From assembly GCA_973895155.1 (NCBI GenBank), contig OZ316892.1, positions 17,040,357-17,104,356 of the forward strand: DNA of 64,000 bases, written 5' to 3'. Source of the DNA: Marsupella aquatica. Lineage: Eukaryota > Plantae > Marchantiophyta. Below, piece by piece: positions 28,095 through 49,716 of this stretch. The notes under the pieces are model-generated. The model saw only the letters and a program-made list of their open reading frames with translations, had not been told where the DNA came from and searched no databases. The position numbers and the translations under genes were made by a program. Positions within the stretch are counted from its first letter, which is position 1, and every line of letters begins with the position of its first letter.

Positions 28095-31080
28095 TTTCTT
28101 CCTCCGTGTCTATCTCCACCCTTTTCCTTTCCACTCCAACTACAAACTTGTTCCTATTTCGCAAAAAAAATTGTATTACTATTTTGCCACTCCTTCGATT
28201 CTTTCTCTACGAGCCATCTCTAATTCTCTATAGCCTACCCATCCGTTCCTCCTCCTTCAATTCTGACCTCCGTTCTCAACCCCCAACCCCCGGGTTACTT
28301 TCCTACGTCTTTCCAGAATTCAATCAAGCTCTCATGTTTCGTACTGAACCCAAATCGCTCGTCAGAATGACTGACTTTCCAATTTAGCTAAAGCCTCCTT
28401 TTTTTTCCTAACTCTCTCCGCCCAAAAATCCTGCTCGCTCTGTGTCCTACTTGCCTCTGTCTGGAGTTCACTAATTTCACACTCGAATGTCCAAAATGTC
28501 TCTCAAGTGCCCCCGCTCTCGTTGTCGAATTGTAAAGTACCGTATTCCGAAAACTCACTAAGAGCCCTCGCTCTCTCACTCGCTCTCACTCCGCCATCTC
28601 TCACCTAAATTTTGTAGATCTGCTAATACTTATGAGCCCATCACTCCCGCATTCTCCATCTTTAAGAAAGTCTGTCAGCGCAACCCTGGGCCCACGAGAG
28701 TGAGGGTGTGAAGCGGAGCTCGGTCCAGCTTCGCCCAACTGACCATGTAGGACAGCAGATGGCCAGATGCTGAACCCAGCGACTGTAGCTGATGAGGTCA
28801 AGTACCTTCTCTTCTGGCTGGGATCTTCTGTTGTTGTGCAATTGAATACTGGTGGCAACATGGCAGTCTTGCTTCCTGTCAGGTGTCTCTCGGCCATCCA
28901 CACCCATTCACAGTCATGAGTTTATCCCAATAAAATGATAAAATACTCGCTGTATAGCTGATATGCAATCCAAAAGGCGATGGCTGCTAAGTTCTGACTC
29001 TCTCACAGACCACTTGTACTTTGTGGCCCTTTTCGCAGTAAAGTTGGCTGTCGTTGGATCCCTTTCCACCGACATCCATTTCACCTCCCGCAGGAACCAG
29101 AGCCTACAGAGCCCACAGGCACAATGCGGAGTATCTCAGTGGGCGGGTCCAAACGAGCCTAAATTTTTTTTTTAAATTGCCTTGAAACCAAATGCTAACG
29201 CAGATGCAGCTCCCTAGGATAGCCCACAAGGGGTCATACCCGGGACCCAAACTGCAGTAGGAGGGAGGGAGAGAGAGAGGGGGTTGAACCAGAGTCCCAA
29301 AATGGGCTAGCCAGCGCTGACCAGAAACCCGGACTTGCACCACATAGTACACACATACACACTCCACAACCCTTCCATATCACCATATTAGAATATTGGA
29401 TGGGGGGCTCTGATTCATTTCTTACCCCCGAGATTTATGGATGATCAGATGTTTACTAAATGCGTCTGTAGCTAGAGTGAAGCTGGCTAATAGCAGATAG
29501 AAATACACCCTCGCGACTTCAGCCAAAGTCATAAGAAAGATGGAATCTACCAAATTTCATTCATAGAAAAAATGCTCATCGAGACTCCACGCGGACAGTG
29601 CATAATGTGTGTCCACTAGTTAGAACATCTCCACCAGTAGCGACTGCAGTAACACTAACGCCAAATAGGGTGAAAAGGGGCCCTCCTTGGTTGACTTAAT
29701 CTTTGTGGTAGGTAACTTCTTTTATTTTTCTTAAACCACTAATCACTGTATTAAATACTCCGGGTGACCCGGAGTAGTCACTCCCAAAACGCGATTGTGG
29801 TGTCCGCGGACGAGCGCACTTCCGCAGCCCTCCGATCGGGAGCCCGATCATTTTCGTCCGTTCGTCAAATGAGCCAATCTATGGCTCAAAATGCAGGTCT
29901 CTCCTAGATCTACGTCTCAAGAAAAACCAGATCTTGAAAGTGAAAATGAGTGAGAAAAATGAAAAAAAACTATCCAAGCAATGTGATTGGTGGAGGCCCA
30001 AAAATTTGAAATTCGAATTTTTGGGCAGGTCGGGCAGGGACAGGTGGCCCGGAGTACTATCGGGCGACCGGGGGAAGAAACCTGTGCGGGCATCCGCCCA
30101 TAGCAGGTCCAACAAGAGCCTCGCCTGGGCCGGTTAGGATTGCTATCTTTCGGATGTCTTTATCCATAGTTGATAGTAACTATGCTCTGAAGAGTCCTCT
30201 TGATTCACTGGTTAGTGCTTCTGCCTCCCAAGCAGCAGGTTTGAAGTTCAAATCCTGGTGTGGAAACCGTGCATGTTTTGCAACTGTGATTGCTCTCCCT
30301 ATTGGGGGTGCCAAAATAGAGCCAAAACAGATAAAACAGCCGCCACCTCAAGGTCTTCCTACGGTTTCAGGTAGGTGTACGTACCAGGCAGTGGGGAGGA
30401 GGGGCATGAGGGCAAAAGGGGCAATGTGGGTACACAATGTCTCATTTGCAAATTGACTTCCCAAGGTACTTTTTCTTTTCTCTTCTCTTTCCCTTTGGAT
30501 TTGCCCATTCATTTATTTTTGTCAATTTATTTTTTGTTTTACCGGGTTTGGCTTGGCATCCGGTCTCTGTTGTCGTTAGGGGTATTTTCTTAGAGGTTAG
30601 GGTTAGGGTTTGGGTTTAGGGTAGGGTTCTATGAGCACCGGGGGTCAGCCCCCAGATCTTCCAGATGGGAGGCGGAAACGTCGCCCAAGGGGAGGGGGTC
30701 CACCTAGACAGCGTTATCCGAGTGATGATATAGATTACAAGAAGAGACGGAGACCGGATGCCAAGCCAGAAATCCGGGTCCCACTTCAACGGTGGGATGA
30801 GTGGGAGGACCTCCGAGGCTTGCTTGGACCAGACACAACACACTCTACCGTTGTGACATGGCTGCTCGATCGAGTGCGACCTGTGGTTCAAGAGCTTCGG
30901 GCATGGCGAGAAGCGGAGGCAGCTCAAATTCCGCCTGAGGCAGTACCATCGCCCACCGCCCAGCAGGATCCAGGTCAGCCTTCACGACCATATCAGGTGC
31001 GGACACTCTCTCAATTACTCATTTATAGTTATTAGTTCCATGTACTCATAGTTTTGACATATATATAGCTTATCTAACTT

Positions 31081-31290: not shown

Positions 31291-32180
31291 ACTACAATTA
31301 GGTTACACAGATTATAACCCATAAGATTATCATACGTAATGCCAAACACTATTCTAAACTATGATTTTATTTATTGGGTCATGTTTAGGGTTTGGATTAC
31401 CATAGAACTGTGTCATGACACTTCCCAGAATAAAAATGTATTATTTTCAAAAGTTCTTGTATCATCTATGATTCCAATAACATTGTCCAGGATGCTACGG
31501 AGTCACATGTGTTGGATGATATTCTCTTGGAGGAGGACATTGCTAAGCAAACACGATTTCGGACCGAACGAGAACTATTTCCTCTAAACGAGAAGTATAT
31601 TTTTATTTTCCACCGAATCTCGCGAAATCGGCAGTTTTTTTCATCAAGAACGCATTTTTGGGGAAATAATGTAATTCGTATCGGAGTTCGGATTGAAACA
31701 GCAAATTTAATAATGATCAAAACCAATGAAATTCATGCTAACAAACATTCATATTATCAAGGAACAATTAGATCTTAAAAACTTTCTCCTCGACCTCATA
31801 TTCACGCTCTCCAAAGATATATGAAAGGTCTTATCTATAAATCCATATCCACGTTTTGAGCCAAGTGCGATAACTGTATCGGACTCCGGATTTGAGCCAC
31901 GAAAACTTCGACCCAATCTCAGGTTTCTCAGTTTTTGGATATTTACCAAAAATATTTTACATCACAGTCGATAAGAATTACTGCACGGTTCGTCAAATTT
32001 ACCTTGCAGTTACCTCCGCAATTGACCAGTTACCTCCGCAAGTGACCATAGTCAACATGCCATTCTTTCAACAGCAATGCGCAGTCCGATAAAATTATCG
32101 GGAAAACTACGGGCGACAAAAATACTAGTCGACAATACTAAGATCCTTCGGTTCATCGGTTAAATTTCAAAATTCCTATC

Positions 32181-32383
32181 CATATGAAGAAAACTCTTCG
32201 CAATACCAACATCAGATAAATTTAGCGCTTCAATTTCAAAATTGCAACTTCCATATGAAGGAACCACTTTTGCAATACCAACATCAGATAAATTTATCGC
32301 TTCAATTTCAAATTGCAACTTCCATATGAAGGAACCACTTTTGCAATACCAACATCAAATAAATTTATCGCTTCAATTTCAAA
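32181..32383. repeat. ~72-bp tandem repeat x3, each unit carrying a variant of the GATAAATTTATCG palindrome
   Basis: CATATGAAG(G/A)AA...GCAATACCAACATCA(G/A)ATAAATTTA(T/G)CGCTTCAATTTCAAAA three times, upstream of the transposase. Confidence 0.85.
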
Positions 32384-32518
32384 ACTATATAATTTTGCCA
32401 CGATGCACGTGTGAGAATGAAATTGGAAATCCAAGAAATATACCCTTTTCTGCTATTTTGTCGTTTAGGGTGACAGCCAATCAAAAGTGGACACGTGGGC
32501 CAACCCCTCAACAGACAC

Positions 32519-32529
32519 TATAAAAGGGC
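32519..32529 (+). promoter_or_regulatory. Putative TATA box of the nested transposase gene
   Basis: CTATAAAAGGG lies 110-150 bp upstream of the in-frame ATGs and is preceded by a G-box (CACGTG) at ~32492. Confidence 0.4.
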
Positions 32530-32639
32530 CACCGCCGATAAGTTTTTGGCGTCATTATCGAGAGTAGAGTTTTGGGAGTTGTGTTCTTGGAGCAACATTC
32601 TGTCCGTTGAGCCTTTCGTTTTCCCTGATTGTGGGAGGA

Positions 32640-35600
32640 ATGCAAAGCCCCATAGTGTCTCCGATAGCCATGTCTCAATCAGACACAGATTCACCTTCCA
32701 GTTCAGTTGAATCATCTCCTAATCTTGTCGCTCGCTGTTTGCCAAGTCGCATACTTAAAGCTCTACCTCTCTCACAGCAAATAGTGCCCAAAATCTCTGA
32801 CTCAGATTCTGATGCAAGTTCTGGTCCTGAGCCTAGTGCTTACTATGTGTCGCCTAGTAAACCTGAGAAGCGTCATCTCTTGAGCGTTCCATCGCCAAGA
32901 AATGAGAAACTTTCAATCCCAGGTTTAGGTCCGAGACGTCGCTTCAGGCCATCCATCCCGGGTTATGGAGAGGGTATCCGGCGACCGATACGCGTATCGC
33001 AGTCGACATTCAAATCGCCACATTCAACACAAGTTCAACGACGGATCTTTAAGTCTCCGGGTGAGGATCGGGACACAAAAATACAAAGACCGATATGGCG
33101 ATCGGTCTTTGCATTGCCTGGACTGGATATGCGAGCAAGCGAGGGAATCAGACTGCGAAGTCCAGACTCGGCCCTTTCTCGAATGGTCCGTGGGAATCAT
33201 GGTGAACAAGTGCTCAATTTTCCAGCAGCTCGCGGAGTCATTGGGACTGCACGTGCGAATCCAGAATCTCCAATTTCTCAAGGGCGGACTGTCATTGGTT
33301 CCAGGCTCCAAGTATCGAGGAGAGGTCTTAGTGGCGTTCGGGTTATGTATAGAGAGCCACGGAGTCCAATTGTGTTTTCAGATGAGTTGAGTGCATCGGA
33401 GGACGAAGATGAGGAAGGAGATAGAGAATCCGATATAATAGCACAAGTTGTGTTTGAATGTTTAGAAGGAGCTGTCGAAGAGAATAGCTATAGTCGTCTA
33501 TTCAGTGCCCCTCTAAATGCGTCAAGGAGATCTATAGAGGATGGTAGCTCAGCAGAGAGTGATGCATCTATTCGCGAGGCACCTGAAGGACCCAAAAATG
33601 CCAATGTTATGAACGGATTTCAGGTTGTAGAGAAGTCAAATGAGCCTAGTAAAAAAGATAGGGACCGAATTACTAGGAAAGACAATGTGATAAATGACAA
33701 ATTGAATAGAAACAAAATGAGAGAAATTCATAAGTATTCGTGTTGTGATAATTACTGTCTGCGGAATTTGGGTCTGCTAGCCGTGACGAAACAACGCACT
33801 TATTACTATGGGCTATCCTACCCAGAGAAGAATGTCCTTCTGAGAGGATGTGTGAAGGGTGGGCATGCTGGTGCAAGTGGTTACTTAGTTAGCGGTAGAT
33901 CCTTTTGTCGAAGTGGTTTTAAGAAATTATTTTCATTGGGAAATAATCGTCTCCAAAAAATCTCGCAGAACATGTTTTCTCGGATACAGATCGGTACAGT
34001 TTGTCGAGAAAAATCACCCGCACATCTTGGTCTCGTCCAATGGCTGGATGATTTTTTTCCACAAATGTCGAGAGTCTCCCCAACAAGGATATCTTTCATT
34101 TACCTGACAATTGGATAAAAACAGAAGTTTTTGATGCCTTCCAGTCCGAAACTCTAATGCGCCAAGAACAAGGCATGACATATTCGTGGTTTGTTCGCAT
34201 TTGGAACAAGGAGTTTCCTCGCGTGCGCATCCCCAAAAGGAGCCATTTCTCCACCTGCACCCCGTGTATTGAATTCAAAGCACTCCGTGACAAGGCAACA
34301 CTCGAAGCAGAAAAGAGTAAGTTTCTAAACCTGTGTGTTACTCTCGATAATTTTATCGGGTTGAGTATTCATGTGCTTCTTCTTTGGCCATGTGAGTGAA
34401 TATATCGTTTGAACAGTTTGAATACTGAACCTGATAAATTTATCGCTGTCACAGTTTTTCATTACGGTCTTGTGTTTGAATACTGAACCCGATAAATTTA
34501 TCGTTGTCAGGGTTTATCATTACGGTCTCGTGTTTGAATACTGAACCCGATAAATTTATCGCTGTCAGGGTTCAACATTGCGATTATCATGTTTTGTCCT
34601 AAACATTTTTATTATTGTAGGAAAATTCTCAACATTGCTAAACGAGCATCGGAAGGCACAAGCAGTCGAGAGGGAGAAGTTAGCAAAGCACCGGAGCAAA
34701 TGTTACAAGAGTCCGGAGAAATATTTGGGCATTCGTATTGATGGAATGGATCAAAAGAAGACAGAATTACCTCATTTCATTCGGTGTCCGAAGAATATGG
34801 ATGAAAAGTATTTCATCCCCGTACACGTAGTGGGTTGTTTGATCTTCAACAAACAATTAAGTTCAAATGTTTTTTTGAACTATCCAAATATTCACAATGA
34901 TAGCAACCTGACCATCCACGTTATCCAGCATATTCTGAATACCTGGGAAGGTCTGCTCCCTCCAGTGCTTTACCTCCAGCTTGATAACATAACTCGGGAA
35001 AACAAGAATAAATATCTTATGGCATATTTGAATATGTTGGTGGAGATAGGTGTTTTCCAGAAAATAAAGGTTGGTTTCCTATTGGTGGGGCACACCCATG
35101 ATCAAATTGATCAAATGTTTAGCAAGTTTTCTTCAAAATTGAACAAGCGGAAAGCTTTCCGGTTGGACACTCTTTCAGCAATCATAGAGGTATCCTACAA
35201 TCCTACGGCAAAGATATTTTTCGTCGACGAGGTTGCCGATTTCAAGAAATTTGTGTCAGACAAGGATCAAGCAAATGACAAGGATATGGATGGTCAGGTT
35301 CTACGTACTCTCCACGGCATAAGTGCTCAAAAACAATTTTGGATTACTAGAGTACTCGAAGATGGAAGTGCTCGGTCCGTATTCCATGCCAAACATCTTT
35401 CAACGACAATCGATTGGGGGGAGACGGTGGATTTTGTTCGGTACATTCCATCATCTGGAATGTGGGTCGCACCACAAATGGCATTGAAATCGGCCATGGG
35501 AGCGACAGGAGACAATGAAGAGCAAGAGAATGATGCTGAGGAACAAGATGAGCGGGCGACTCAAAGTTATTTGTCAACTCTTCAAAAATATCGAAGAGCA

Positions 35601-36230
35601 ATTGAAGATGGATTCAATTACTTTGACGACGCAGATCGTCTATGGTGGGGTCGTTTTTTTGACAAACAAAAAGAAGTGATTCAGCACCACCTGAAACCTG
35701 CACAATGGAGTTTTGATTGGAGTTGGCCCAAGGTAAACGTACAGAGAGAACTTCCGAGTAATCCTACGGAAGCAGCAATGGAACCTAGCTTGGTTGATAA
35801 AGTAGCGGGTGTGAGGACAGTCATGTATTCCGGAAGTCGAAGAAAAGTCACGGAAATTGGAGACTTCAAGGATCTAGAGGTGAATACTAAATTTGCAATG
35901 ATATGTGTAGCAGCCCATCAGGATCCCAAGGGAAGACCATTCTGGATGGCAAAAGTGACTGAGATTCTCACAAGAATTAACGACATCCCGGAGCGGATTA
36001 AAATCACTTGGTATGCAATGGATTTGGAGGAAGAGTCTGCAATTGAAGGCAGATATTATCCGGAGAAAGAGGCTTCGTCTAGCAAAGTACTGGAGGATGA
36101 ATTGTCCCTATCAGAAACTGCCGTTTATGCGTATAACTTTGCGTTATTGGCAAATAGTACTCTCCCTATACAAACAAGATGAATCATTCAAAATGCAATG
36201 GAGACTGTAGTCGTTGATAGTCGAAGCTAG
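32640..36230 (+). pseudogene. Sola-like DDD/E transposase (DUF7869-like), one intron, one frameshift, probable late premature stop
   Basis: Long disordered N-terminus, then Cys motifs (CCDNYCL, FCRSGF, FSTCTPC) and a catalytic core IDGMDQ...DSNLTI...LYLQLDNITRENKN...GFLLVGHTHDQIDQMFS. GT-AG intron 34317-34620 joins in frame. A -1 frameshift lies at the T7 run 34052-34058. The TGA at 36180-36182 is probably CGA>TGA, since the frame stays open to 36230. Confidence 0.8.
34414..34572. repeat. 58-bp tandem repeat x3 in the transposase intron, each unit with the 14-bp palindrome
   Basis: GTTTGAATACTGAACC(C/T)GATAAATTTATCG(C/T)TGTCA repeated with a 58-bp period. Confidence 0.9.
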
Positions 36231-36557
36231 TTTCAGGTTTAAGTTATAATGGTTATCGTTCCCATGAATATGTACAGTGGTTATCGTTCTGGGACTATGT
36301 ACTCCGCAGCTATAATGATATCTTTTTTTTAAATAATTGCAATGACAAACCAATTAGAGAATACAATGTTGTCCGATAAGATTATCGACAACTCCATTCC
36401 CCCAGCAAGAACACCGTGACAGTCCGATATATGCAAAGTCCGATAAATTTATCGCATTAATAAATGTGACAAAGGTTCTTCCTCATGGAATACAGAAGTC
36501 GATAAATTTATCGACAACTTCATTGGTGATTGACACTATCCTAACGAGCACACGCAA

Positions 36558-39500
36558 CTAATCTAATAACATGTTGTTGAGATCATCCTCATTTGGTGTT
36601 CTGGGAGGCTCTTCCTCAGTTTCTTCTTGTTCCTCTTCGGTCTCCTTCATGACCTCAACTACGTAAGTCGATGTCCCGAGTACACCCAATTGGCCTGCAA
36701 TTGGTGGTTGAATCTCATGACCTTCAACGCCGTGCCCTTCAATCTGGGATTCTTCATATAAATTCCAGTTTGACTCCAGAATCATGATCCGGGATTTTAC
36801 AAAACCAATCTGCGTAGAACTCTTATCAACAGCACAACCCTGGCGAGAATTGAGGAGCGTAGCAGCTAATGTCGATCCGGTTCCACAACAAAGATCAATA
36901 ACCCAATCCTCTTTCTCAGAGAAATGGGAAACAAACCAAGCCCCTAAACCAACAGGCTTCTGATATGGGTTCACAACAAATCCCAACGGATCAACGGACT
37001 TCTTGGTTACACATGGAACCTTGATGATATTGACGCGAGACTCATCCACTTGGAAATTGTACATGTTCATGTTCCGAATGCCTTCCTCGCTATAGAAACC
37101 TATCGACCAGTTCTCAAAACCCCATGCCAATCGAGCTCCAGCGGGACGCTCATGAATGTTAGTCTTCTCCCAGATTCTCGCCTCGACCCCACAGTTGCAT
37201 ACACTCTCCAGTGCAGACATCACCATATGCGTTTGTTGTAGTGAATGGATCACAACAAACCTCCACTGCTTAACGGTCGTCATCTTTGAGAAACTTGTCA
37301 ACATGTCTAAAATGTCCTTTTCTGTGAAGGCCACTTCATCAAACTCCAAACCAAGAGCATTAAAACCATACGGAATATCCGCAACCGCAAGGGTGTAAGC
37401 CCTTGGCTGAACAAAAGAATCCAAAATTCGAACATCACCAACATGGAGATAGTAGGGAAAAGAATCCCCGTCTGCATTTTTCCATGTTTGTTCAAACGCT
37501 TCTGCTGTGCCCTCGCCTAAGGACCTCAGCCGATTGTACTTATCGATTGCAGCAAGCACAAAATTCTTAAACACATAAGGGATTTCAGCTGAGGGAACAA
37601 TAACCTCCCCCACAGAATTATAAGTGACAGCCGGAACCACTTTGCTTTTCCTTTTTGAATTAATCTTCAGCTGTAAGAATGTCAGACACATCTACAGTTA
37701 GAATAGCGTGAGATGAATGCTAAAGCCAATAAAAATCTCGCGATGGAGCACGCTAGCCAATAGATGGAATCGCTTAGAAACCAACAAAGGAATGCTAAAG
37801 CCAATAAAAATCTCGCGATGGAGCACGCTAGCTGATAGATGCAATCGCTTAGAAACCAACAAAGGAATGCTAAAGCCGATAAAAATCTCGCGATAGAGCA
37901 TGCTGTGAGAGGAATGCTTACCGCGTCACTCAATTTCTCCGCCCATATGCCAAGGACCGAGATATCTGTTTCATTGGGAAACATTTCTCTGCATGTTGCC
38001 CAATCTGGCTGACCAGATATCTGCAAAAATAGTTTCTTCACCTTGGCAAGCTTTTTCAACTTCTCACCTTCCTTGTGCATTTGATCCAAAGTGATCACCT
38101 TCCCGATAACCCTATTCAAGAGACGCTTGACATGCTCCTTATTTGACAGTCCTTGGAGACCTCGAAATGAATTTAAGTTGAGGTCACCAGCAAGTTTATT
38201 CATTTTAATCTCCCTTACCGTCAAAGGTTTTACCTTTCCCTTTGCGTTCGTCGTTGCCACAATTTTTTTGGGTTGTCCTAAGACAATACCTTTCTCCCAC
38301 ATCTGGAAAATCTGCTCCTGAAGATCCCAAATTTCACCTGTTCGGAAAGCAATTTGGAAAGCCGGATCATGTTTGGCCATGGAGTCACGAACTCCTGGCG
38401 TGTACTCCATCATGCATTCTTGACAACATGCTTCGCGGATATCTTTAGTCGAGCCCACACCCATTTCAAGGAAAATATTGTGACAAGCGCGAACTTGGTC
38501 AATTTTAGTCATGTTCTTTCGATACTCCTGGTCATAGTTATGCTGGAAGCCTAACTTTCGGACCTCGGATCTCGTAAGCCCAGCATAAACCCAAGCTTCC
38601 AGCTCACCATATATTTGCTTCCCGTACATTTTAAACAACTCGGACTTTGCCCGAGCACCATGATTCCCTCCAATAATTCTATACTTCCATACCCTTGACT
38701 TCAGGATGTCCCAATCTGCGGTTGTGGGACAATCCTTCGGATCCACACACAGCACGAACGGGGCACTAAAGTTGGTGGGGTTTTTCATGAGAAGTATCTT
38801 GATATTTTCCACATGCAATCTATCCACTGGTCTAATCAAAGTTGTCAAATCCCCCTCCTCATCAAATATGAGATTGTCGACACGCAGAAGCACAGTTGTC
38901 CTTTGCACCCTTCGTTGCATCAGAAGACTGAGCTCTGCCTTGATCGCGTCCGTCTCATACATCAAAAGAGCCGTCTCCTCCTCCTGATCAACCTACAAAA
39001 GCGTTGCAAATTCAATTAAGGAAAGAAACTGCGAGATTTTTATCGGAGTTCGCATTTGTTCAACATAACTCCACAATCCGCAATTCAGGAAATAAACAGC
39101 GATATTTTTATCGGATTTCGTGTTTGTTAAACAGTACAACGATGTAGTACTTACCAATGGCACCGCAGGAACCGCGACTGGAACTGATGGAATTGACGGA
39201 GCTCTATCTACTTCTGCAGCCACCGTCTCAATCCAGCCAGTCCTCTTCCTCTTTGTGCTAAGTCCAGAACCAGATGGCCCGGATCCCTCGGATCCTTTAC
39301 TTTTGCTTGGTTTAACGGATGGTCCTCGATGGTTGCCCCGGCCTCTCCCACTACCGCCAGTTTCCTGGCTCTTCTTCCCACCGTCAGAGGTTCCCGCGGC
39401 ATCTCCCCTGCCGCTACCTCTCCCTTTTCCTTTTCCACTTCCCGAAACCCGACCAGAAGTTGTAGGTTCGTCCACGTCAATATGTGTAGAGGATTGCAAT

Positions 39501-40123
39501 GGTTCTTTTCGCCCCGATATTTTATCGGCATTAGAACCACCGCTGCCACTTGAACCTGGTTTCTTGAAAACAATTTTGCGGATAGGTTTGAACTCTTCAC
39601 CCACAAGTCTCTTGTACTCTGCGTTCACCCTTGGAAGCATGATGGCATCACAATCTTGCACATACTGGCCGATCCAAGCCGAACCCATAACATTCATCTC
39701 TCTTGCTGCCCGAACATCGGCAACAAGGGGATCTTCTGGATAACTGTCCATCGATTTCTCATCAAAGTTATCGAGAGTAACAATGAGAGATGTGAAACCC
39801 TTGCGCCCACACATTGTCAAGAAACTAAGGCCCTCTGTCAACACTTTTCCCTCCCCGTGGCCAACCATGAACTCGACGACGGCAACAGCAATGACAGGGC
39901 CATACGAAACATTAACCTTCGCCGATTTTTGCAACTGAACCCAAAGGATTGGGGTAGCACAGTCTTCGAAACCCGTGGACTGTAATCTGGCGTCATGGAA
40001 GTACCATGACTTCTTGATACACTTGACCTCTTCACAAATATCTTCACTTGTCCAAATTGCATTGGTGAGGCTTGTCATGAGACTTTCTGCCTCAGCAGAT
40101 CCACTCTTTCCACTAGCAGCCAT
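36558..40123 (-). CDS. ParB/Srx-like domain fused to a beta-class N4-cytosine/N6-adenine DNA methyltransferase; 3 exons, ~1050 aa
   Basis: Exons 40123-39155, 38992-37922 and 37670-36558 are joined by phase-0 GT-AG introns (GTAAGT/TTGTAG; GTAAGC/TTACAG) with no stops. Exon 2: IRPVDRLHVENIK..PFVLCVDP..YRIIGGNHGARA..HN (ParB/Srx-like). Exon 3: HVGDV..LAVADIPYG (motif IV) ... YQKPVGL..WFVSHFS....WVIDLCCGTGST..A.....RQGCAVD (motifs X, I, II), the motif order of the N6_N4_Mtase family. Confidence 0.88.
37714..37905. repeat. 75-bp tandem repeat (~2.6 copies) forming most of intron 2 of the ParB-MTase gene
   Basis: GAATGCTAAAGCC(A/G)ATAAAAATCTCGCGAT(G/A)GAGCA repeated; each unit has a degenerate palindrome C(G/A)ATAAAAATCTCG. 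Confidence 0.85.
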
Positions 40124-40343
40124 GGAAAAGTCTGCAAATAAACAAATTCCAATGCAAAGAGCGATAAAATTATCGCCGCCAATCTCACAGCACATGTGGA
40201 CACGACATCTCATCACACAAGGACAAAGAGACCGATAAAATTATCGCAAAAGTGAGCCTTCTTTAAATTGACGGCCGAGTGTACAGGTCGAAGAATCAGC
40301 TACGGAACCCTAAATCCAAAACCTTAACCCCTAAACCTAAACC

Positions 40344-40583
40344 CTAATCATAGTTGAACCTCGCCAGAGCGAAGCGTTCGATCCGCTTCTTGGGCCATTG
40401 GGGAATATGAGTGACGCGATGATCATAAGCCCACAGCCAATGGAAATTAACTTCACCAGTCTCAGGATTCACTACTGCTACTGAATACCGGTGTGACGGA
40501 ATGTCACAACAAGCATTTGTGCAGCATGGACAGATCTCACCATTGGCAAGGACGTTCGTCCACAGGCAACTTACATAGATCAA
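40344..40583 (-). CDS. Small Cys/His-rich cargo ORF; start uncertain, possibly a frameshifted or spliced continuation of the upstream ORF
   Basis: CLW...ICPCCTNACCDIPSH...HWLW; overlaps the stop of ORF 40580-41056 and ends at a telomere-like CCCTAAA tract. Confidence 0.35.
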   Translation of the reverse strand: MIYVSCLWTNVLANGEICPCCTNACCDIPSHRYSVAVVNPETGEVNFHWLWAYDHRVTHIPQWPKKRIERFALARFNYD

Positions 40584-41056
40584 GTTAAAGAGCCCACAGA
40601 CCGGTTGGGGGGGAGTTGACGAATCTTGTATGAATATAGTTTCCCACTAGTGTCAATAAAAAACTCGGTGGCAAGAGGATTGTCCAGCTCGTCAATCACA
40701 TCCTGAATCTCATCGAATGCTCTACGTCTGTTGTCGGCATAGAATTCTGGCTCATAAGCAGGATTGCCCTTCACAACATGACAGCAGTGGAGTATAAAAC
40801 GTCTTACTGCACCGGTTTTCAGAAAGAGTAGGATAACTCTTCTAGAAAATCCAACATATCTATCCCACCGAATATAAATTTCTCCCCCTACCTGATCTAC
40901 GTAGAAGTGAAATGCGTTATGGTAAAACGGTTTTACTACCAGCCTGCATATCTTTAAAATTAGTGACTCATCCAGCCTCCTTAGCTGGTCCAGCATGGCT
41001 CCATTCCCCCATTCTGGAGGATCCGGGAAGGGTACAAAAATGCGTCGCTCGAGCAT
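40580..41056 (-). CDS. Hypothetical transposon cargo protein, 158 aa
   Basis: ATG in GCCATG context just after a CAG acceptor; globular-looking composition; same strand as the other cargo genes. Confidence 0.55.
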   Translation of the reverse strand: MLERRIFVPFPDPPEWGNGAMLDQLRRLDESLILKICRLVVKPFYHNAFHFYVDQVGGEIYIRWDRYVGFSRRVILLFLKTGAVRRFILHCCHVVKGNPAYEPEFYADNRRRAFDEIQDVIDELDNPLATEFFIDTSGKLYSYKIRQLPPNRSVGSLT

Positions 41057-41348
41057 GGCCTGATCACCGAATAGAAATCAGGAATAAATTTTGGAGAACA
41101 TACTAATTACAATTCTACAAGTTTCATCCAACTTTATAGTACCTTGTATAACGGGCTGTGAAGCCAATGCACTTGTCAGCTAATCGTCCGAAGAGGCGCA
41201 AAAAAATACACTCTGGACCACACAACCCGAAGTCAGGGGAGGCAGAGTCAATTATATTCAAAGTGTTTCTTTACAAGCACCCAAAATCGACTAGAGGAAT
41301 GAGGAGTGCGATAAATTTATCGGATGTTCGCTGCAATGCCTCATCCAC

Positions 41349-41897
41349 TCAGACTCGTCCATGCCATGCAAGAATTGTCCGCTTCCCGCTTTCTCCAAGA
41401 TTTATCCAAACTCTACGAAACTGATCTAACTGCTCATACGAAAAGCACCCAAGCATATCTATGGGAGGGAGAAAATGAGTTTCCTCTCGGAAGACCCTAG
41501 CAATATGTAGGTTTGAGAGAAGGTCAGCATTAGGAATGCTTGCGAGCATTTTGTTTATGTCATTGATCTCACGGACTGCATATTTCAATAGCGCCCAAAA
41601 TCGTGTACCAACAACAAGATGGTTCCATTTCTTCGAGGTGGCTCCAAGACAAATGATTGTTCTCATTCGAGTCAGTCGTTCTTCTGGTAAAAGTTTTAGG
41701 TCAAGCCCAAGGTGTTCATCTTGTGTGCAAGACAAGGCTAGGAGGGGCCAAATGTGAGATTCAACGAGTTCATCGGGAAGTCCATTCAACAAACTTCCGC
41801 ATTCCACACCGGGCACTTTTCCTCGAATATATTTCCTACACTCGTGGGCTAAAACGGATCCCATCTTTGCAACGATTAGATTCTCCGATGTAGCCAT
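41349..41897 (-). CDS. F-box-like cargo protein, 182 aa
   Basis: LLNGLPDELVESHIWPLL....ICLGATSKKWNHLV matches the F-box pattern LPDEL...I...L......V.K.W..LV, with an insertion. Confidence 0.65.
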   Translation of the reverse strand: MATSENLIVAKMGSVLAHECRKYIRGKVPGVECGSLLNGLPDELVESHIWPLLALSCTQDEHLGLDLKLLPEERLTRMRTIICLGATSKKWNHLVVGTRFWALLKYAVREINDINKMLASIPNADLLSNLHIARVFREETHFLPPIDMLGCFSYEQLDQFRRVWINLGESGKRTILAWHGRV

Positions 41898-42091
41898 GAA
41901 GCAGAGCTACCAAAACCACCAATAACAATACCTTCAATCACCAGGTGTAACCGAACACATCCACAGTACCAACCTTGCACGACAGTTTAACGATTAGGAC
42001 TCGTGACGTATTATATTCGCTACGCAAGGGTAGGACTTGTTTATTTAAATATGTCCTTCCAAGATGCGCCTCAATGAAAAGGTCGAAACAC

Positions 42092-42421
42092 TCATCGTGA
42101 AAGGTTCACCCAAGGGTCTTCGTTCCAAATCTTACAACAAAAGTGAGCCTGTTTGTGGTACTTGTTGTCAAGACGACGACAACAATAGTTACAAGAAAAC
42201 TCCAAAGAATGTAAACACGCCGTTAACATCAACCTCGAACGAATTGGAACTCCTACATCATTCATTCCGCAGAATTCAATGCGGAGAGGATTCTGCCTAT
42301 CTCCAGGATCAGTACCACCCATCCACAATGCTCCTATACCGATGGGGAGAACTTTGAGTCGCACAAGTCTCTTGTACAACCGGCGTGCACGTTTGACATG
42401 ATTTTCAAGGAAGACAGCCAT
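42092..42421 (-). CDS. Small Cys/His-rich cargo protein, 109 aa
   Basis: ATG-initiated ORF containing ACLHSLEFSCNYCCRR...HKQAHFCCKIW, a possible zinc-binding module. Confidence 0.45.
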   Translation of the reverse strand: MAVFLENHVKRARRLYKRLVRLKVLPIGIGALWMGGTDPGDRQNPLRIEFCGMNDVGVPIRSRLMLTACLHSLEFSCNYCCRRLDNKYHKQAHFCCKIWNEDPWVNLSR

Positions 42422-45400
42422 TTGTCACAATACCTATTGTCCACGGAGTGCAATCGACCTTCCGTTGTGCCTCCTAAACCCGGCAACACTGCGACATCAG
42501 AGATGAAGATGAGTCTCCAAACAAAACAAAGGAAAATGATTCTCACAGGAGGATGCGATAAGTTTATCGCACTCCGCATTCGAATTGAAAATATGACTTC
42601 CTCAGACACCTAAGCCCTGAATTCAATCTTTCACAAAAATGACAACTCCGATAAATTTATCGGATTCTCAATTACTCCTCTTTCCATGAAAGGAATGGAG
42701 ACTCCGATAAATTTATCGGAATGAAGGCAACACCTCTCTAAACACACTGGATCAAATGATTGCAACAGAGGAATGCAAAATGCGATAAATTTATCACAGT
42801 CCGCTCGGATCTAGACATTTTACACTAAATGACTAGTTAGTCTTACATGGAGAACTTGAACAGGAATGGCTGTTCCGATAAATTTATCGGGTTTTCGGTA
42901 GAAAGAGTTCAATCGCTTGGGAGGAATGTAAGACTTGATGGGAGTTTGGTATTCGCTCTCAGTCAGGAGATATTTGCTCTAGCGAAAGCAAACGTTTTAT
43001 GGGCAGCCCGCTCCTCTTTATATAGGAGACGCTCTAAACCATGGTTAATTTCCCCTTAACCATGGTTAAGTTTCCCTTTTACCTGGGTTAGTGCGTGGTC
43101 GTTCCTGGATTACGCGGTTCGGACCAAGTTACTCGCAGTTCGGACTTTTTCACTGACGGAATGTAAAACCCGATGCACGTATCGCTCCCTGCATTCCCAT
43201 GGCGATGCAATGGAGGAAAGTGGCATTTCGGAGAGTTTTTGCCAATTTTATCGGTCATTGCATTGCCTTAGAAAAAAAACGGGATCGGGCTAAACGAGAA
43301 CTCCGACACACTTCTCGGTCGGTCTGAAATCGTGTTAGCAATATGCTTTGGATGCGGAAGATGAAGAATTATATCGCGAAGATGATCCAGATACTCTTGT
43401 GGCTTTAGGAGCAAACATCAATGTGGATGAGGGAGACTTCCAAGTATAAATCCTCTCCTTCCACCACTCTAGTATGCAAAGTTCATTTTTTTATAATTAT
43501 AAACAAAAGAGAAAATGTTTGACCACCAAGTTTGTGGGTTTCTTGTACCAGGAGCCATCCATTGCCCCCGACTCTCAACCTACAGGAGCGGCTCCAACCG
43601 TTGCCCTTTGCCTTCTCTAGTTCCTGACTCTCAGCCTACAAGACCTCCGGACACACAACCGACTCGTAGAGTAGCACCTCGTCTTCCAACTACAGTTGCA
43701 TTTTTTGATCGCAACCTGGTGGCTACTTTTGTCATATACATGGATGTTTGAGGACTCCGAGAGTTGAGCGAGTGACCGAGTTGCATCAACTTTGGTCAAT
43801 TCACATTGGATGTGGGGAGGTTGGTCATGGTTGGACTTATATTACAGGCGAGAATGAGCCTGGGAGGTCTTCTCCTATGATTACCCCCCAGTTGTATCAT
43901 TCCACCCTTTGTGCAGGCCTCACCTATACCTCTTTGGCTGTTGTTGTAGCATACATCGGCTTACATGTTCCTACTGCAGCTCATTGGCACAACTTTCAAA
44001 GTGGTCGTGGACGTCCTCGGGGTGGATGGATAGCAGCTGTAAAACAACAATGGAATGAAAACAAAAGTCATATGTGGCAGCAGCTAAAGGATGACATTAA
44101 GCAGAGCCGAGCAACTAATACTGGTAAGTAATTGATCGTTATAGATCCTACTTGATTTTTTTGGGTACTCAAGGGTTATGCTCTTCTTACCAATTTTTTG
44201 GTTTGATCTGGTTCTCATAGTTTGTATATATGCTTTGTAATGACAGACCCTGGATTAGTGGTGTACTTGGATACTCGATGGGATTCTTCGAGGAGCGGTT
44301 ATCATGGTACCACCTCTCTCCTCAATGTTGAAGATAATAGGGTAATTGAGATGGTTACAATTACCAGGAGAGAATAGAGAAATGCTTGGCACATGGAGGA
44401 CAAGGGTACTCAAAGGGCACTAGATAATTTGAGAGAGGCAGGGATCTTTATCACTGAGGTCATCCATGACGACAAGGCCACTATTGATAACATTGTGGAG
44501 AACATGGGAATGCGGAACCAGAAAGACTTGTGGCATAAGGCCAAAAACCTTATCAAGAAGTTTGTGGAGAAGATGGTGAGTGCCACCTACACTGTGACCA
44601 TTGACATTGATACAGCTGCATCTCGTTCTGAGTTGCAACCAGTTACGGCTAAGAAGTTGCAAGACTGGTTGAAGGCTAGGGGTGTGAGAGGGTACTCTGC
44701 CCTTAGGAAGGAGGCACTTGTCCATAAAGTTGGGGACATGCGTGGGTTGCCACCTGGAGAATTGATACATATTGCAACACGTGGCCTCAAGTACCCAGAG
44801 CTGTCTCAACACAACATTGCCACAAAGTTGAAGACATGGTTCTACGTATGTTGTCGGCGATGTAAGAGCAGGTATGCATAATATTGGATAGGGTGTGAAT
44901 TTTGAGGTTTTACATTTGTAGGTGTACTAAGTGTGGGATGGGTAACTTACATATTATTTCACAAGACTAAGTAATTGGAATGTCCATTATGCAGTGGGGG
45001 AGATGCTGCATCCTTGGCCTTTGAGTTGGGTAACTGTGGTGATCATTGGGCCGGCGATCACAGATTATGTGCGAGACTATCTGATTGACCATGTCAGCAT
45101 CTTGAGGAGCCGGGGGCCATCCAGCTTGACCGTTACTATGAGAATGGTAAAATTTGTGTTGACTTATGTAATTCTGTTGTGAAATATGACTTGGTTAGGT
45201 AAGCAAGATTGCATGTTATGCATGACTTATTATTGACTTTTTTTTGTACATGTAGGTGGCGAGACTCATAAGGCCATGCAAAAGTTTCTGAAAAAATACA
45301 TTACTCCCGAGAAGATGAGGTTTTATACCATGGCCCGGGAGAATTTCATGTCAGAGACTTACCATTCCATGATGGGCAAATATGCGACAAAGCGCATTCA

Positions 45401-46768
45401 TTTCTCAGCCAGTCACGAGGCCCGTTTGTGTTGTGCTACCATGGATTGGAACGAGAATATCAGAAGGCATGTCTGGAATGTGGATATGCTCGCACACCCG
45501 TGAACATTGCTATCAGGGAGCGCCCTCCTCGAACAAGAGTATTGGTGGACCGGACCACTAGTTGGAAGGACGCTACAAGTGAGCGCATTTATGGAGTGTC
45601 ATGTCCATGAGGTAAAGAATATTGACTAAATTTGACTGGTACAAGGAAATGTAAGGATATAGCGCTTGTTCATGATAATTCTAATATATTGTACTGAGTT
45701 TTTGTTGTAGGATGATTTCATGACATCCTATGGAGATAGTACCACCCAAGTATTGTGTCCAGATAAAGTCAGTGTACATATGGAGCGAGACCTCCATATA
45801 AGACCTCGGCTAACATATCTCATGTGAGTGAAGAATTGTTCAGGATTTTTTTGCATTCGAAAACCTAGTTTGGAATGGATCTTGTAATTTAGGGTATCTC
45901 TTATGTTACCTCTATGCTAATTTATTCCATACCAATGTTGCAGGGGATAATTTCCATGAGAAGGGCCGAGACCTGGCACCCATAGTGTTCCAACCATTTT
46001 CCAGTGTTTACCATCCTCAGACTGGAGGGATACAATGTTACTATGTTGACTGCTATGTCAAGTTTTTGTACTTATATAAAATGACTTGTATGTCATGTTT
46101 TTGTCTATCATGGCCAAACAACCTTATATGGTTAGGAGTCTTTACTTGATTTGTGGTTTGCTTGGGGGGGGTTTGTGCTTTGAAGTCCTATGAATTAGAC
46201 TCAGTTTATAACTTGGCCACCACTAAATAAAAAGCGAACACAAGAACCCCTAAATTGTGGAATATAATTGGTTTTCTTTGCCTAGTTTTGTGGAAAATGT
46301 GACATTGGGAGACTCTTCATGGCCAAACAAACAATTGGAGTTGTTTCCCTTTTTTGTATGAGATGTTACCACTAAAACTATAGAGTGTATGTATTTCAAC
46401 ACCTTTTGAAAGGGGAGAAAAGAACATTGAAATAAACTGAAGCAAAAATGCAGAATGACTCGCAGAGTGAAGTATGTCAATAAGGTGAAGACCCTGTAAA
46501 TCTATACTCAAGTGTGACATGGACTATACTCAAGTGTGACATGGACTCCCAAAGGGAATTTGGCACCTCTATCATGCATCAACCAGTATCAGTTATACTC
46601 TTCCATAAGGTTGGCAATGACTATGAACGGCATTTTGTGCTATAGAATGTACTCCCAAGAGGAATTGAACCTCTTACGCTGCCTGCCAGCAGGACTTGTT
46701 CTGCAAGAACATTTATTAGTAGTGTAGCAAATTGCAAGGAGAACATCAACTTTGGCACCATAATGTCT

Positions 46769-47173
46769 CTAACTAATTAGGGAGAGGAATCCTACAAATT
46801 CCTCCCTTTCATCATGCCAAGTTTCTTTCACACAAGTTTTGACTGCTTCAGGAAACTTAGTTCTATCGGCAAAGCCTGCCACATAGGCCAAGTGAGTGTA
46901 AACCTGAAATTGTTTTCTTCTCATGACGGTCTCTGCATAAGTGTATGCAGCACACAAGATGAATTGTTCTACCGCAATTGCTGGATTGAGATCAGAATGA
47001 CATTGTCTAACTACGTTGCAAAAGTCTGGAAAATCTGTTTGGACCTCTTGCAATGTGACAGTCCGAACAGTGGGCGGAGAACCCTCAACATGATTTGGAT
47101 CCTGCCAAGACAATTTGTAAACTCCATCTGCATGTTCAGTCAACATGACTTTCAACTTTCTAACTGGTGCCAT
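46769..47173 (-). CDS. KolX-like accessory protein of copy 2, 134 aa
   Basis: Intact paralogue of 14659-15057 with mostly conservative substitutions. Confidence 0.7.
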   Translation of the reverse strand: MAPVRKLKVMLTEHADGVYKLSWQDPNHVEGSPPTVRTVTLQEVQTDFPDFCNVVRQCHSDLNPAIAVEQFILCAAYTYAETVMRRKQFQVYTHLAYVAGFADRTKFPEAVKTCVKETWHDEREEFVGFLSLIS

Positions 47174-47629
47174 CTTCTTGCCGTGAGAAATTAGAGTGAG
47201 AAATTCAATATCCCCAAAGCTTCAGAATTTTACCAAATGTACCACATTCACGATTGTATATTGAATGCCAACAAAATTGAAGCCTCTGCCACGAAAAGCT
47301 TTGCTTGGCCAAACGAGAATCGATCTGAAATAATAACAAACCAGCAACAAGGAGCAATAGCAAGTTCTTGCTGCAACAGGAACAAGCAGCATCGAGCAAT
47401 CACCGAACCAGGTAGCTCCAGCAATGGCAGCAGCTATGTACGGCAACCGAGCAGCAGCGAGCACCAAACAGGGCCAAAATTGTGCACTATGGCAAAACGG
47501 AGCTTTTGCTATGGCAACGGAGGAGAAGTGAGCTCACAGCCATGAGTAGCGACTTCAAAACCAGCCGCAGCGAGCAGAAATAGAGGGCCCTAGCAAAATG
47601 AAGCTCTAGCTGTGGCAGTGGAGCAGCAG

Positions 47630-48600
47630 CGAAGTAGCAGCCGAGCAGCAGCAACAACCAAGAAGCAGCCTACTAGCAGCAACAGTCGAGCAACAACAGG
47701 AGTAGGCCGAGCAGCAGCCTTGATTGAAGCTTCCGGTCCTTCAACAACCGAGCTGAGCAGGAGCTGAGCAGCAGCCGAGCAGCAGCAACAACCAAGAAGC
47801 AGCCGACCAGCAGCAACAGTCGAGCAACAACAGGAGTAGGCCGAGCAGCAGCCTTGATTGAAGCTTTCGGTCCTTCAACAACCGAGCTGAGCAGGAGCTG
47901 AGCAACAGCCGATGCCTCTCCTCCAAGAAAAGTATGTCCTCCGACCGGCAGCTCATGAACCTATGGCAGCCTTCAATCGAACAAAAACCGGTCCTTCCTC
48001 CCAGCAGCACCCTATGAAGATCAGATCAAGCTATTCGAGCTTGTAGCAGCCAATGTTGCAGCAACTACCAGCAGCTGATGTTGCAGCAACTCGCAACAGC
48101 ACCCTGTCAAGAGCAAATCAAGCTATTCAAGCTTGCAGCAGCTGATGTTGCAGCAACTCGCAGCAGCACCCTGTCGAGAGCAAATCAAGCTATTCAAGCT
48201 TGCAGCAGCTGATGTTGCAGGAGCCGATGTTGGAGCAGCCAATAATGCATCAGGTATGAGCAATTTCAGATTTGGAGGGAGACAGCAACGAGGTGTGAGC
48301 AAGTTCAAGCAATGAGTTGAAGCAACAAATCAATTCAGCAGCAAGATCAAACACCAAATCGATTCAGCAGCAATAGCAAGCAGTGGCAGCCGAGGGCGCA
48401 ACGAGCAGAGGCAGCCGAGGGCGCAGCAAGCAGAGGCAGTCAGTGGCTGGCTGTGGCAGCCATATGCTCGAAGGGAGGAGGCCACACATTCAGCTGGGAG
48501 GCAGCAACGAGCCTCAGTAGCAATAGCCTCAACAGCAGCGACTTGAAGAAGCAGCGACTTGAAGAAGCAGCGACTTGAAGAAGCAGCGAGTTTCATGAAG
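47630..48600. repeat. GCA-rich tandem repeats in the right arm of Kolobok copy 2
   Basis: ~133-bp duplication at 47637-47910, ~63-bp units at 48023-48230, and 15-bp GCAGCGACTTGAAGA x3 at 48536-48590. Confidence 0.75.
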
Positions 48601-49381
48601 CAGCTTCAGCAACAAATCGATTCAGTGGCAACAACAACTAGGGGCAGCCGATGCGCAACGAGCATGGGTACACTGTGGCTGGCTATGGCAGCCAAAAGCT
48701 CAAAGGGAGGAGTGCGAGCATGGGCAAGGCGGACAGGGCTATGGCAGCCAAAAGCTTGGAGGGAGGAGTGCGAGAGGAGGCCAGCAGCTCGCAGGAGGCC
48801 AGCAGCTCGTAGGGGTAGCTTTTCGCACTCTAGGGCTGGTGGGAGGGAAGGGGGAGTGGCCCTACTAACCCCGGTTAGTCCCTCGGGTTTGAACGACACT
48901 TTGACCCAACGGGCAAAGTGGCACGAGCGGGGGGCAGGGCTCGGGGTCCTTATATACCCCGAGTTGTGGTTTAATGTCCTTGATGATTTTTTCCTTTGTA
49001 TTTTTCAGGGCATTTTGGGAGCATAACGCCCGGTCAAGGTCTGGATCACATCTTTACAAATATTCTCCTCTACTGAAACTTAGAAAAGATGAAAATCTCT
49101 CAGGCCTTAAAGTAGTAAGGTTGTGCTTCCAGATCATTCTGGGCAATACTGGCCCCTCAAAATGCGAGTTGAAGCTCTCCTTTTGGGGGCATTATATCCC
49201 ATAATGCCCTATGAACAAGACTTTGCCTTACACAAAAAACCCACTCAATTCTACTTACCTATCTCCTTCTGAATGGGGCTTTACAAGAGCCCAGGCCAAT
49301 CCAACTTCTATTGAGAGGATTTCGAGAGGATATCAAACCGTATTTTAAAAAGTGGATCAAGGGCTAATAAATGGTGATAAC

Positions 49382-49716
49382 TGTTAGGTATTGCTCTTAG
49401 TCTTGTGAGCTAATCACAATTAGGCTAACTCAGGTTAGGACTTAGCTAAGGTTAGCGATAGTGTTGTTGTGTATATTGCCAGGGCTGGTGCCAACCCCTG
49501 GTGGAACTAAGGCTCATTGTTACGGAGCTAGTTGAGAGATAGGGAGAGCTTGCGCTGTGAATGCTTGGTATGGCCGGTCGGCCTAGAAAGCAGTAAAGCT
49601 CTTGTGTGTTCCTGTGGTAGCCTCATGTGGAGGTGAACCACGTATCTCTCTGTGTCGACTCTTGTGCGTTGGATGGTTCATGGGCTTGCCGTTGCAAATG
49701 TCGTCTATGCTCATCA
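49382..49716 (+). mobile_element. Solo LTR of the adjacent copia family, opposite orientation
   Basis: TGTTAG...CTCATCA, reverse-complement-similar to the LTRs at 51190 and 57784. Perfect 5-bp TSD ATAAC at 49377-49381 and 49717-49721. Confidence 0.92.

Follow-up and report, generated by a model that had tools for sequence, protein, structure and literature searches.

A ParB/Noc-like methyltransferase gene carried by a liverwort DNA transposon, and the repeated composite site that it may bind and mark

The subject of this report is an 11,787 bp DNA transposon of the liverwort Marsupella aquatica, located in a 64,000-nucleotide stretch of assembly GCA_973895155.1 (contig OZ316892.1, positions 17,040,357 to 17,104,356 of the forward strand). 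This stretch is referred to here as the window, and all coordinates are given within it. The element carries a likely spliced gene that joins a predicted ParB/Noc-like unit to an amino-methyltransferase (MTase) domain and contains 22 exact copies of a composite DNA site that is absent from the rest of the window, and both the gene and the architecture of the site are conserved in related elements. Our preferred explanation, to which we give a probability of about one half, is that this is an accessory gene of a terminal inverted repeat (TIR) transposon whose product, a ParB/Noc-type dimer with a tethered MTase, binds the 14-bp palindromes of its own element and methylates the adenine of an outer (G)AAT, likely as a defence against silencing. 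An earlier, sequence-only reading of the window had envisaged a transposon that could deliver unusual DNA methylation into plant genomes; it overlooked the composite site, which points to self-targeting instead.

The element occupies 31550-43336, as delimited by self-blastn and inspection of its ends. Its TIRs (31550-31574, plus strand, and 43312-43336, minus strand) match at 23 of 25 bases and do not contain the composite site, and they are flanked by a 4-bp target-site duplication, AGCA (31546-31549 and 43337-43340, both plus strand), which is present in single copy at an empty site. That empty site is found within the window itself: the insertion lies in copy B of an older repeat, of which copy A (10143-11012 and 11025-14441) runs unbroken across the insertion point. 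With the DDE-type transposase gene (32568-36182, plus strand; Pfam DUF7869, PF25273, E=2.4e-48; likely intron at about 34317-34620), these features prove the insertion to be a cut-and-paste transposon and bear out the supposition that the MTase gene is carried by one. The transposase gene is convergent with the MTase gene, and since two related metagenome loci (L002 and L003, introduced below) share this convergent transposase 3′ end, the linkage of the two genes is conserved. The transposase had been described as having lesions; one frameshift is indeed visible, in a T run near 34,055, but it is the only one and could be an assembly error. The AGCA duplication has the 4-bp length of the Sola superfamily, and the transposase may resemble that of Sola1. 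AT-rich 4-bp duplications have been described for Sola2, membership of which was considered and rejected, as the transposase motifs GMDQ, LQLDN and GHTHDQID differ by inspection from the published Sola2 alignment (PMC3627910, supplement S10).

The MTase gene lies on the minus strand in three exons, 40123-39155 (323 amino acids), 38992-37922 (357 amino acids) and 37670-36558 (370 amino acids), separated by introns of 162 nt (38993-39154) and 251 nt (37671-37921) which are both GT-AG and in phase 0; the first contains two of the palindrome sites, and the second a 75-bp tandem unit bearing degenerate sites. Joined computationally, the exons give 1050 codons with no internal stops, and the gene appears intact and its splicing likely when it is compared with its relatives. 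Five of these (L001-L005) were recovered among 132 candidate stretches in a scan of metagenomes, an earlier scan by word-pattern search, of limited reach, having returned none; L001 and L002 have the three exons in order, L003 has exons 2 and 3, L005 has exons 1 and 2, and L004 has part of exon 2. An open exon 1 is terminated by a phase-0 GT donor in L001, L002 and L005, while exons 2 and 3 are collinear in L001, L002 and L003, with intron positions matching those of the window gene. Across intron 2, the homologue P0168 passes from exon 2 to exon 3 without leaving the frame, while in other full-length close homologues similarity ends at the same donor as in the window gene. The ParB-like part and the MTase are also found together within single open reading frame (ORF) proteins (P0021, P0048 and P0050). 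The joining of three ORFs through two canonical phase-0 introns, first proposed in the sequence-only reading, is therefore upheld by homologue and metagenome loci alike, and the features that it listed (GGNH, DIPY, DLCCGTGST, a G/S/K/R-rich linker and an acidic tail) are each found in their places in the exon translations. An alternative in-frame acceptor for intron 1 lies 9 nt downstream of the first (38984-38992).

The composite site, AAT-N8-CGAK-N6-MTCG, contains a palindrome with the core consensus CGATAAATTTATCG, and its 22 exact copies lie between 31868 and 43195, all inside the element and none outside, where 0.03 would be expected in the window. The palindrome itself has 21 matches at up to two mismatches, again all within the element. 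The outermost copies are no more than 320 bp from the left end and no more than 150 bp from the right, and 19 of the 22 fall in introns, untranslated regions (UTRs) and intergenic DNA, the other three being in the low-complexity 5′ portion of the transposase ORF. The spacers are nearly all different (21 distinct among 22, with a mean identity of 0.40). The repeated stretch of the transposase ORF that holds the three sites, 32986-33115, may be non-coding or may carry them in frame.

In the related elements the outer AAT and its spacing are kept while the palindrome core changes, being CGAGACnnGTCTCG in L001 and L003, CGATCCAAACATCG in L002 and CGAGACGGGTATCG in L005; a GACnnGTC core is common to L001 and L003, the window and L002 having other cores, and both CG dinucleotides of the palindrome are conserved in all five elements. 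Matches to the composite site number 20 in L001, 20 in L002, 10 in L003 and 4 in L005, with none in five phage loci. The reduced pattern CGA-N8-TCG is found 24 times in the window element against a shuffle mean of 2.35, and 12 (1.2), 22 (1.3), 8 (0.8) and 4 (0.6) times in L001, L002, L003 and L005, respectively; L004, which is 1,086 bp long and mostly exon, has none. Over 74 sites, giving 148 flanks, GAAT stands exactly 8 bases outside the palindrome in 61 and NAAT in 89, while all other spacings of GAAT together account for 8. The outer word is often two-sided in L001 (8/18) and L003 (6/8) and often one-sided in the window (12/23) and L002 (12/21). In all four relatives of sufficient length the sites are concentrated in the 5′ region of the MTase gene and in its introns. 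Because the spacing is fixed and the spacers are free in families that are synonymously saturated (see below), the composite site points to a two-part protein-binding site under selection, beyond what local duplication alone would leave. In viral contigs there were no matches to the symmetric site pattern; three lone matches to the window's own site were taken as chance, related genes being absent.

Exon 2 is predicted to encode a complete ParB/Noc unit, comprising a nucleotide-binding domain and a helix-turn-helix domain. When folded by AlphaFold2 from a 36-sequence alignment it reached a predicted local distance difference test (pLDDT) score of 85, against 34 for an alignment-free fold, and all 11 Foldseek matches of this model at E<=0.001 were Noc or ParB; in a viral library the majority of named matches were likewise ParB-like proteins. 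Residues 31-159 (38516-38902, minus strand) form a ParB/Srx nucleotide-binding-type domain with the motif GGNHGAR and an invariant H151-N152, and they superpose on the N-domain of Caulobacter crescentus ParB (Z 10.6, root-mean-square deviation 2.2, 98 residues). Residues 158-317 (38042-38521, minus strand), a ParB/Noc-type helical domain with a predicted helix-turn-helix, match the DNA-binding domain of Spo0J in its parS complex (Z 6.2, which is middling alone, root-mean-square deviation 4.0, 100 residues), and the two-domain unit as a whole matches Noc, KorB and ParB at Z 8.6-9.5 over 188-200 residues, all of these Z scores being obtained with VIA as a re-scoring of Foldseek's own matches. 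The ParB/Srx fold that had been expected is thus seen in the model and in both comparisons. What had been described as a helical region corresponds to the helix-turn-helix DNA-binding domain of ParB, and the exon would therefore hold the whole ParB/Noc unit, beyond a ParB N-domain. A self-dimer is also predicted, with a score of 0.47 against 0.00 for the best control, run-to-run contact agreement of at least 52% and a pLDDT of at least 69; the mark applied is reached by 21 of 30 solved homodimers and by none of 23 monomers, and the pass may stem from resemblance to solved ParB dimers.

Such a protein has much in common with bacterial ParB, Noc and KorB and their parS and NBS sites, as described in PMC7383237 and PMC8367383, namely the two-domain fold, the predicted self-dimer and the multiple palindromes, and it differs from them in having an MTase in place of the C-terminal dimer domain, in lacking a ParA, and in being eukaryotic and spliced. 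ParB and Noc, as dimers with two-fold symmetry, bind palindromes via the helix-turn-helix domain (PMC7383237), and the phosphate-binding arginines of the GxxR motif are R103/R104 in C. crescentus ParB (PMC8367383). This motif is not found in the window protein, which reads GGNHGAR, or in distant relatives, which read GG[NG]H[TSC]R, when the two are mapped by eye. On the ParB consensus, likewise mapped by eye, the invariant N152 would be N136 of ParB and N274-x-x-R277 would be G201-x-x-R204, with the G-x-x-R spacing retained, and the position of the CTP-binding R104 would be occupied by Gly (Thr, Ser or Cys in relatives). The position of N274-x-x-R277 reads G-H/N-W-R in the relatives. Because the GxxR arginine appears to be replaced, sliding driven by cytidine triphosphate (CTP), as in bacterial ParB, is doubtful, and the models lend better support to DNA binding by exon 2 than to such sliding.

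By language-model comparison, exon 2 (37922-38992) most resembles DUF3723 proteins of ascomycetes, at a score of 0.95 with 170 features shared. DUF3723 is described in bioRxiv 2021.12.13.472469 as a gene conserved among the cargo of Starship giant transposons, and a literature search found no paper combining it with ParB; the fungal protein may be a relative of this ParB module that lacks the methylase, in a second class of eukaryotic mobile element. Exon 1 (39155-40123, minus strand) encodes a conserved N-terminal domain of about 185 amino acids, 27-32% identical to those of L001, L002 and L005, followed by an unconserved low-complexity linker. It had no match in Pfam, PHROG or a protein search, and its Atlas look-alikes (0.91) were set aside as mere leads, the shared counts being low.

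Exon 3 consists of a connector, the MTase core and an acidic tail, is 56-58% identical to L001-L003, and is, as judged from profiles and motifs, a beta-class amino-methyltransferase nearest to N6-adenine (N6A) enzymes. The core (36771-37469, minus strand) has the permuted motif order, with motif IV (DIPY, residue 98 of the exon, 37379-37368) N-terminal to the S-adenosylmethionine (SAM) motif I (DLCCGTG, residue 259, 36896-36876), and it includes a YQKP motif. The Pfam N6_N4_Mtase profile (PF01555) gives E=7.6e-5 and 23.2 bits for the window exon, where the gathering score is 26.7, and 30.5 bits for the 68%-identical P0004, with up to 65.7 bits for other relatives. A profile search in 1.84 billion representatives returned 246 matches at E<=0.001 (150 listed), whereas another search, aimed at longer relatives of the exon, returned none. 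When a 47-sequence family profile was compared with the PDB, the beta-class N6A enzymes M1.HpyAVI (1e-20), 8URK (1.4e-17), RsrI (1.5e-17), CcrM (2.7e-16) and MboIIA (8e-15) were matched far better than the N4-cytosine (N4C) enzymes, which at about 7e-7 were some 13 orders of magnitude weaker. The N6_N4_Mtase domain that had been anticipated is thus supported.

Two of the earlier remarks on this domain call for correction. DIPY, which had been thought atypical, is the commonest form of motif IV among 109 aligned relatives (31, against 18 for DPPY and 1 for SPPY) and is found in a phage enzyme annotated as adenine-specific; among six phage enzymes DIPY, DLPY and DVPY occur once each and DPPY twice, one enzyme having no match. 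The parallel with the 4-methylcytosine (4mC) enzymes of rotifers and Marchantia is weak, given the profile scores above and the SPPY/TSPPY motifs of those enzymes, since motif IV of the window enzyme begins with Asp and not with the Ser of the N4C type. Across 16 relatives, W167, D98/P100/Y101, QKP and D259/G263/G265 show complete invariance or conservation of at least 90%. Because N6A structures match so much better than N4C structures, and in view of the motif IV census, adenine is judged the likelier target and N6-methyladenine (6mA) a likelier product than 4mC, in a domain for which repeated switches of specificity have been described (PMC8885841).

Across the metagenome loci synonymous sites are saturated in all eight exon comparisons (proportion of synonymous differences, pS, 0.76-0.83), whereas non-synonymous divergence (dN) is far lower, at 0.35-0.48 for exons 2 and 3 and 0.67-0.73 for the exon-1 domain, which indicates that the gene has been under long purifying selection; the purifying selection that the earlier reading implied is thus supported in 8/8 comparisons. 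Lesions were seen in exon 2 of two relatives, a stop in the L001 copy and a frameshift in the L003 copy, as expected of dead transposon copies. Among 30 related proteins looked up, the organisms named are Chara braunii (4 proteins), Ginkgo biloba, Adiantum nelumboides and Riccia sorocarpa, the other entries being assembly or metagenome proteins, and some of the relatives are already labelled in databases as N4/N6 methylase-domain proteins. A plant host for the window is indicated by these relatives and also by the Copia and P450 fragments near the element. One C. braunii protein, P0012 (GBG86584.1), is annotated as a single protein with two tandem ParB-MTase units and probably represents two adjacent copies fused by the gene caller. 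Phage and plasmid matches cover the MTase domain only, at 22-35% identity, and no relatives of exon 2 were found in word-pattern scans, of limited reach, of viral contigs and prokaryote genomes; a second viral scan of this kind likewise returned no relatives. In a quick, midpoint-rooted MTase tree of 65 rows picked for full domain coverage, the 59 family rows stand apart from 6 phage rows, chosen as best matches (Shimodaira-Hasegawa-like approximate likelihood ratio test, 98), and L001 and L003 are sisters (96); this tree, which excludes Marchantia DN4MT1 and rotifer N4CMT, names no donor. The description of the protein as being of prokaryote or phage type is accordingly right as regards deep ancestry but not as regards close kin, as no close phage or prokaryote relative appeared in the pattern scans and searches. 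The family is of prokaryotic but old origin, with no recent phage transfer, because Chara, a fern, a liverwort and Ginkgo all have members of it.

In the mechanism that we propose, the two helix-turn-helix domains of the dimer would grip the palindrome as those of ParB and Noc do, and the tethered MTase would reach the conserved outer adenine about one turn away, 8 bases beyond the palindrome. The resulting 6mA mark would keep the element expressed or shielded from host silencing. The variable palindrome core would set family specificity, and because the cores differ between families each would mark only its own kin. Self-activation or anti-silencing seems the likeliest purpose because the placement of the sites in introns, UTRs and intergenic DNA matches that of the targets of VANC, discussed below. 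The shared GACnnGTC core of L001 and L003 coincides with their sister relation in the MTase tree, although this co-variation of core and protein is drawn from three groups of kin. A bolder version, in which a eukaryotic transposon family took over the whole bacterial parS/ParB-style address system, with a dimer that reads a 14-bp palindrome, a tethered MTase that writes 6mA at a fixed distance and a private self-mark for each family, is one that we put forward tentatively.

Several points weigh against the proposed explanation. The bare CGA-N8-TCG pattern is slightly enriched outside the element as well (9, against a shuffle mean of 3.4 and maximum of 8), and three composite sites lie within the transposase ORF. 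The window copy of the MTase falls short of the Pfam cut-off (23.2 against 26.7 bits), and the first proline of DPPY is replaced. According to the text of bioRxiv 2026.05.21.726589, transposon DAM enzymes expressed in Escherichia coli yielded no methylation, and streptophytes are without abundant 6mA. The link between the ParB-MTase and the site is moreover indirect, so that the transposase or an accessory ORF could be the binder, and the comparison set contained no MTase-free element of the DUF7869 transposase family as a control.

This last point leads to the alternative that the composite sites are bound through a bipartite DNA-binding domain of the transposase or of a short accessory protein. 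The ParB-MTase would then be conserved cargo with its action elsewhere, or with no choice of sequence. Activation of an element by its own transposase is known, and a lone transposase can bind motifs and activate kin (bioRxiv 2026.08.24.746577), and some of the composite sites do lie near the ends; the TIRs nevertheless lack the site, the transposase peaks described in that same source sat at TIRs, and the clustering of sites around the MTase gene in 4/4 relatives also weighs against such a binder, so that we regard this alternative as unlikely. If instead the protein binds its sites with an MTase domain that is inactive, or that serves merely as a dimerising or base-flipping reader, occupancy itself would give the effect, as with VANC or TnpA. 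This is suggested by the variable second residue of D-x-P-Y, by the DIRS MTases judged likely inactive in PMC4738411 and by the negative heterologous tests of transposon DAM enzymes already cited, but the catalytic Asp and Tyr and the glycines of the SAM motif are retained at deep divergence and DIPY, DLPY and DVPY are all present in phage enzymes, and we consider it improbable.

A further possibility concerns the target base: the enzyme might place 4mC at both conserved CpGs of the palindrome, which would block host 5-methylcytosine (5mC), in the manner of a rotifer N4CMT or Marchantia DN4MT1 turned to transposon use. The conservation of both CG dinucleotides fits this, as does the repeated switching of specificity in the N6_N4 domain, and once the sites are masked CpG observed/expected stands at 0.79 in the element, the older host repeat having 0.37-0.40, but this last difference could reflect a young insertion alone. 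With an Asp-first motif IV, SPPY in only 1/109 relatives, the much weaker match to N4C structures and the consideration that a bound palindrome would be a poor substrate for its binder's own catalytic domain, we think it a slim prospect. The view that the gene is a passenger in decay, or a recent prokaryotic contaminant, and that its repeats were produced by local duplication only, could appeal to the exon 2 lesions in L001 and L003 and to the sites that lie within tandem units; it is largely refuted by the conserved introns, purifying selection in 8/8 comparisons, insertion with a target-site duplication into a genomic repeat, and an AAT spacing that is fixed while spacers are free across five diverged elements.

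Both transposon-borne MTases (on DIRS, long terminal repeat (LTR) and viral Mariner elements) and motif-guided self-recognition (VANC) are already known. The VANDAL/VANC system of Arabidopsis, as described in PMC5735166, likewise combines a DNA transposon, an accessory protein and short family-specific motifs that have built up in intronic, intergenic and terminal non-coding DNA and are often tandem-expanded, and family-specific motifs are similarly enriched in the non-coding DNA of the window element. VANDALs are Mutator-like elements whose VANC binds 8-9-bp non-palindromic motifs and removes 5mC, whereas in the window system the accessory protein has a predicted ParB fold and brings its own MTase, the motif is a 14-bp palindrome accompanied by an outer AAT, and the transposase is of the DUF7869 kind. 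The DAM-carrying DIRS/LTR retrotransposons of bioRxiv 10.64898/2026.05.21.726589 bear a prokaryote-derived adenine MTase proposed to favour the element's expression, but their Dam domain is of the NPP type and truncated, and streptophytes are reported to lack DAM-LTRs, while the present element is cut-and-paste and combines a complete beta-class domain with a module for site-specific DNA binding; ParB, N6_N4 and Sola go unmentioned in the text of that preprint. TIR transposons that carry an MTase are also represented by Mariner elements of algal viruses (PMC3627910), which are described as viral and endonuclease-paired and have different MTase families.

As to the enzyme itself, the N6A MTases M1.HpyAVI, 8URK, M.RsrI, CcrM and M.MboIIA share with it the permuted order, D-x-P-Y, W-x-K, QKP and D-x-x-x-G-x-G, but are stand-alone restriction-modification or orphan enzymes without a ParB module and were matched via the family profile only. 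Rotifer N4CMT and Marchantia DN4MT1 (PMC8885841, bioRxiv 2021.02.12.428880) are also beta-class amino-MTases of prokaryotic origin with introns in a eukaryote; they differ in being SPPY/TSPPY host genes that make 4mC, with a chromodomain fusion in the rotifer, are not described as transposon-borne, and are matched weakly (7e-7 for the N4CMT structures). Phage ParB-MTase loci and eukaryotic N6A clades in which ParB-type parts are linked to N6A MTases were described by Iyer et al. in 2016 (PMC4738411), including a second chlorophyte-type Dam family with an N-terminal ParB-type helix-turn-helix; that family belongs to group 2 (EcoKI/TaqI-like) and occurs in chlorophytes and chytrids, and none of the clades in the main text of that paper joins a permuted MTase to both ParB domains on a TIR element of land plants or charophytes. 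In our literature search neither a ParB-MTase on a TIR element of a eukaryote nor the composite site was described, and no paper on DUF7869 came up, though subscription papers and supplements could hold such an account.

Should the proposed explanation be true, it would name the enzyme behind sequence-specific 6mA in plants, a mark that is disputed there, together with the exact base that it targets and the exact coordinates, and because all three are specified the claim is testable on existing nanopore and single-molecule real-time (SMRT) data. It would mean a private 6mA self-mark in streptophyte genomes thought devoid of a DNA 6mA writer, and a writer-based route of transposon self-recognition alongside VANC-type demethylation. 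It would also be a nuclear use of a ParB/Noc-type site-specific binder in a eukaryote, of which the literature searched holds no account, and the natural variants of the palindrome core would amount to a ready set of addressable methyltransferases.

Elsewhere in the element, four short accessory ORFs lie upstream of the MTase gene on the minus strand (40344-40646, 40580-41077, 41349-41906 and 42092-42424); that at 41349-41906 has a weak F-box-like Pfam match (E=0.064), and the other three have no Pfam matches. The older, degraded repeat that surrounds the element has its copies at 10143-15312 and at 29730-30596 plus 43337-47637, the latter being copy B, which hosts the insertion. These are 80-92% identical by segment, contain remnants of transposase-like ORFs and differ by 99 transitions, 44 of them at CG or CHG. 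A broken Copia-type LTR retrotransposon at about 51190-58127 (minus strand) retains gag, integrase and reverse transcriptase fragments and 348-bp direct repeats that are 94% identical, with an inverted copy of this repeat at 49381-49717. Finally, a cytochrome P450 exon or fragment (PF00067, 1e-30) is located at 18005-18454.

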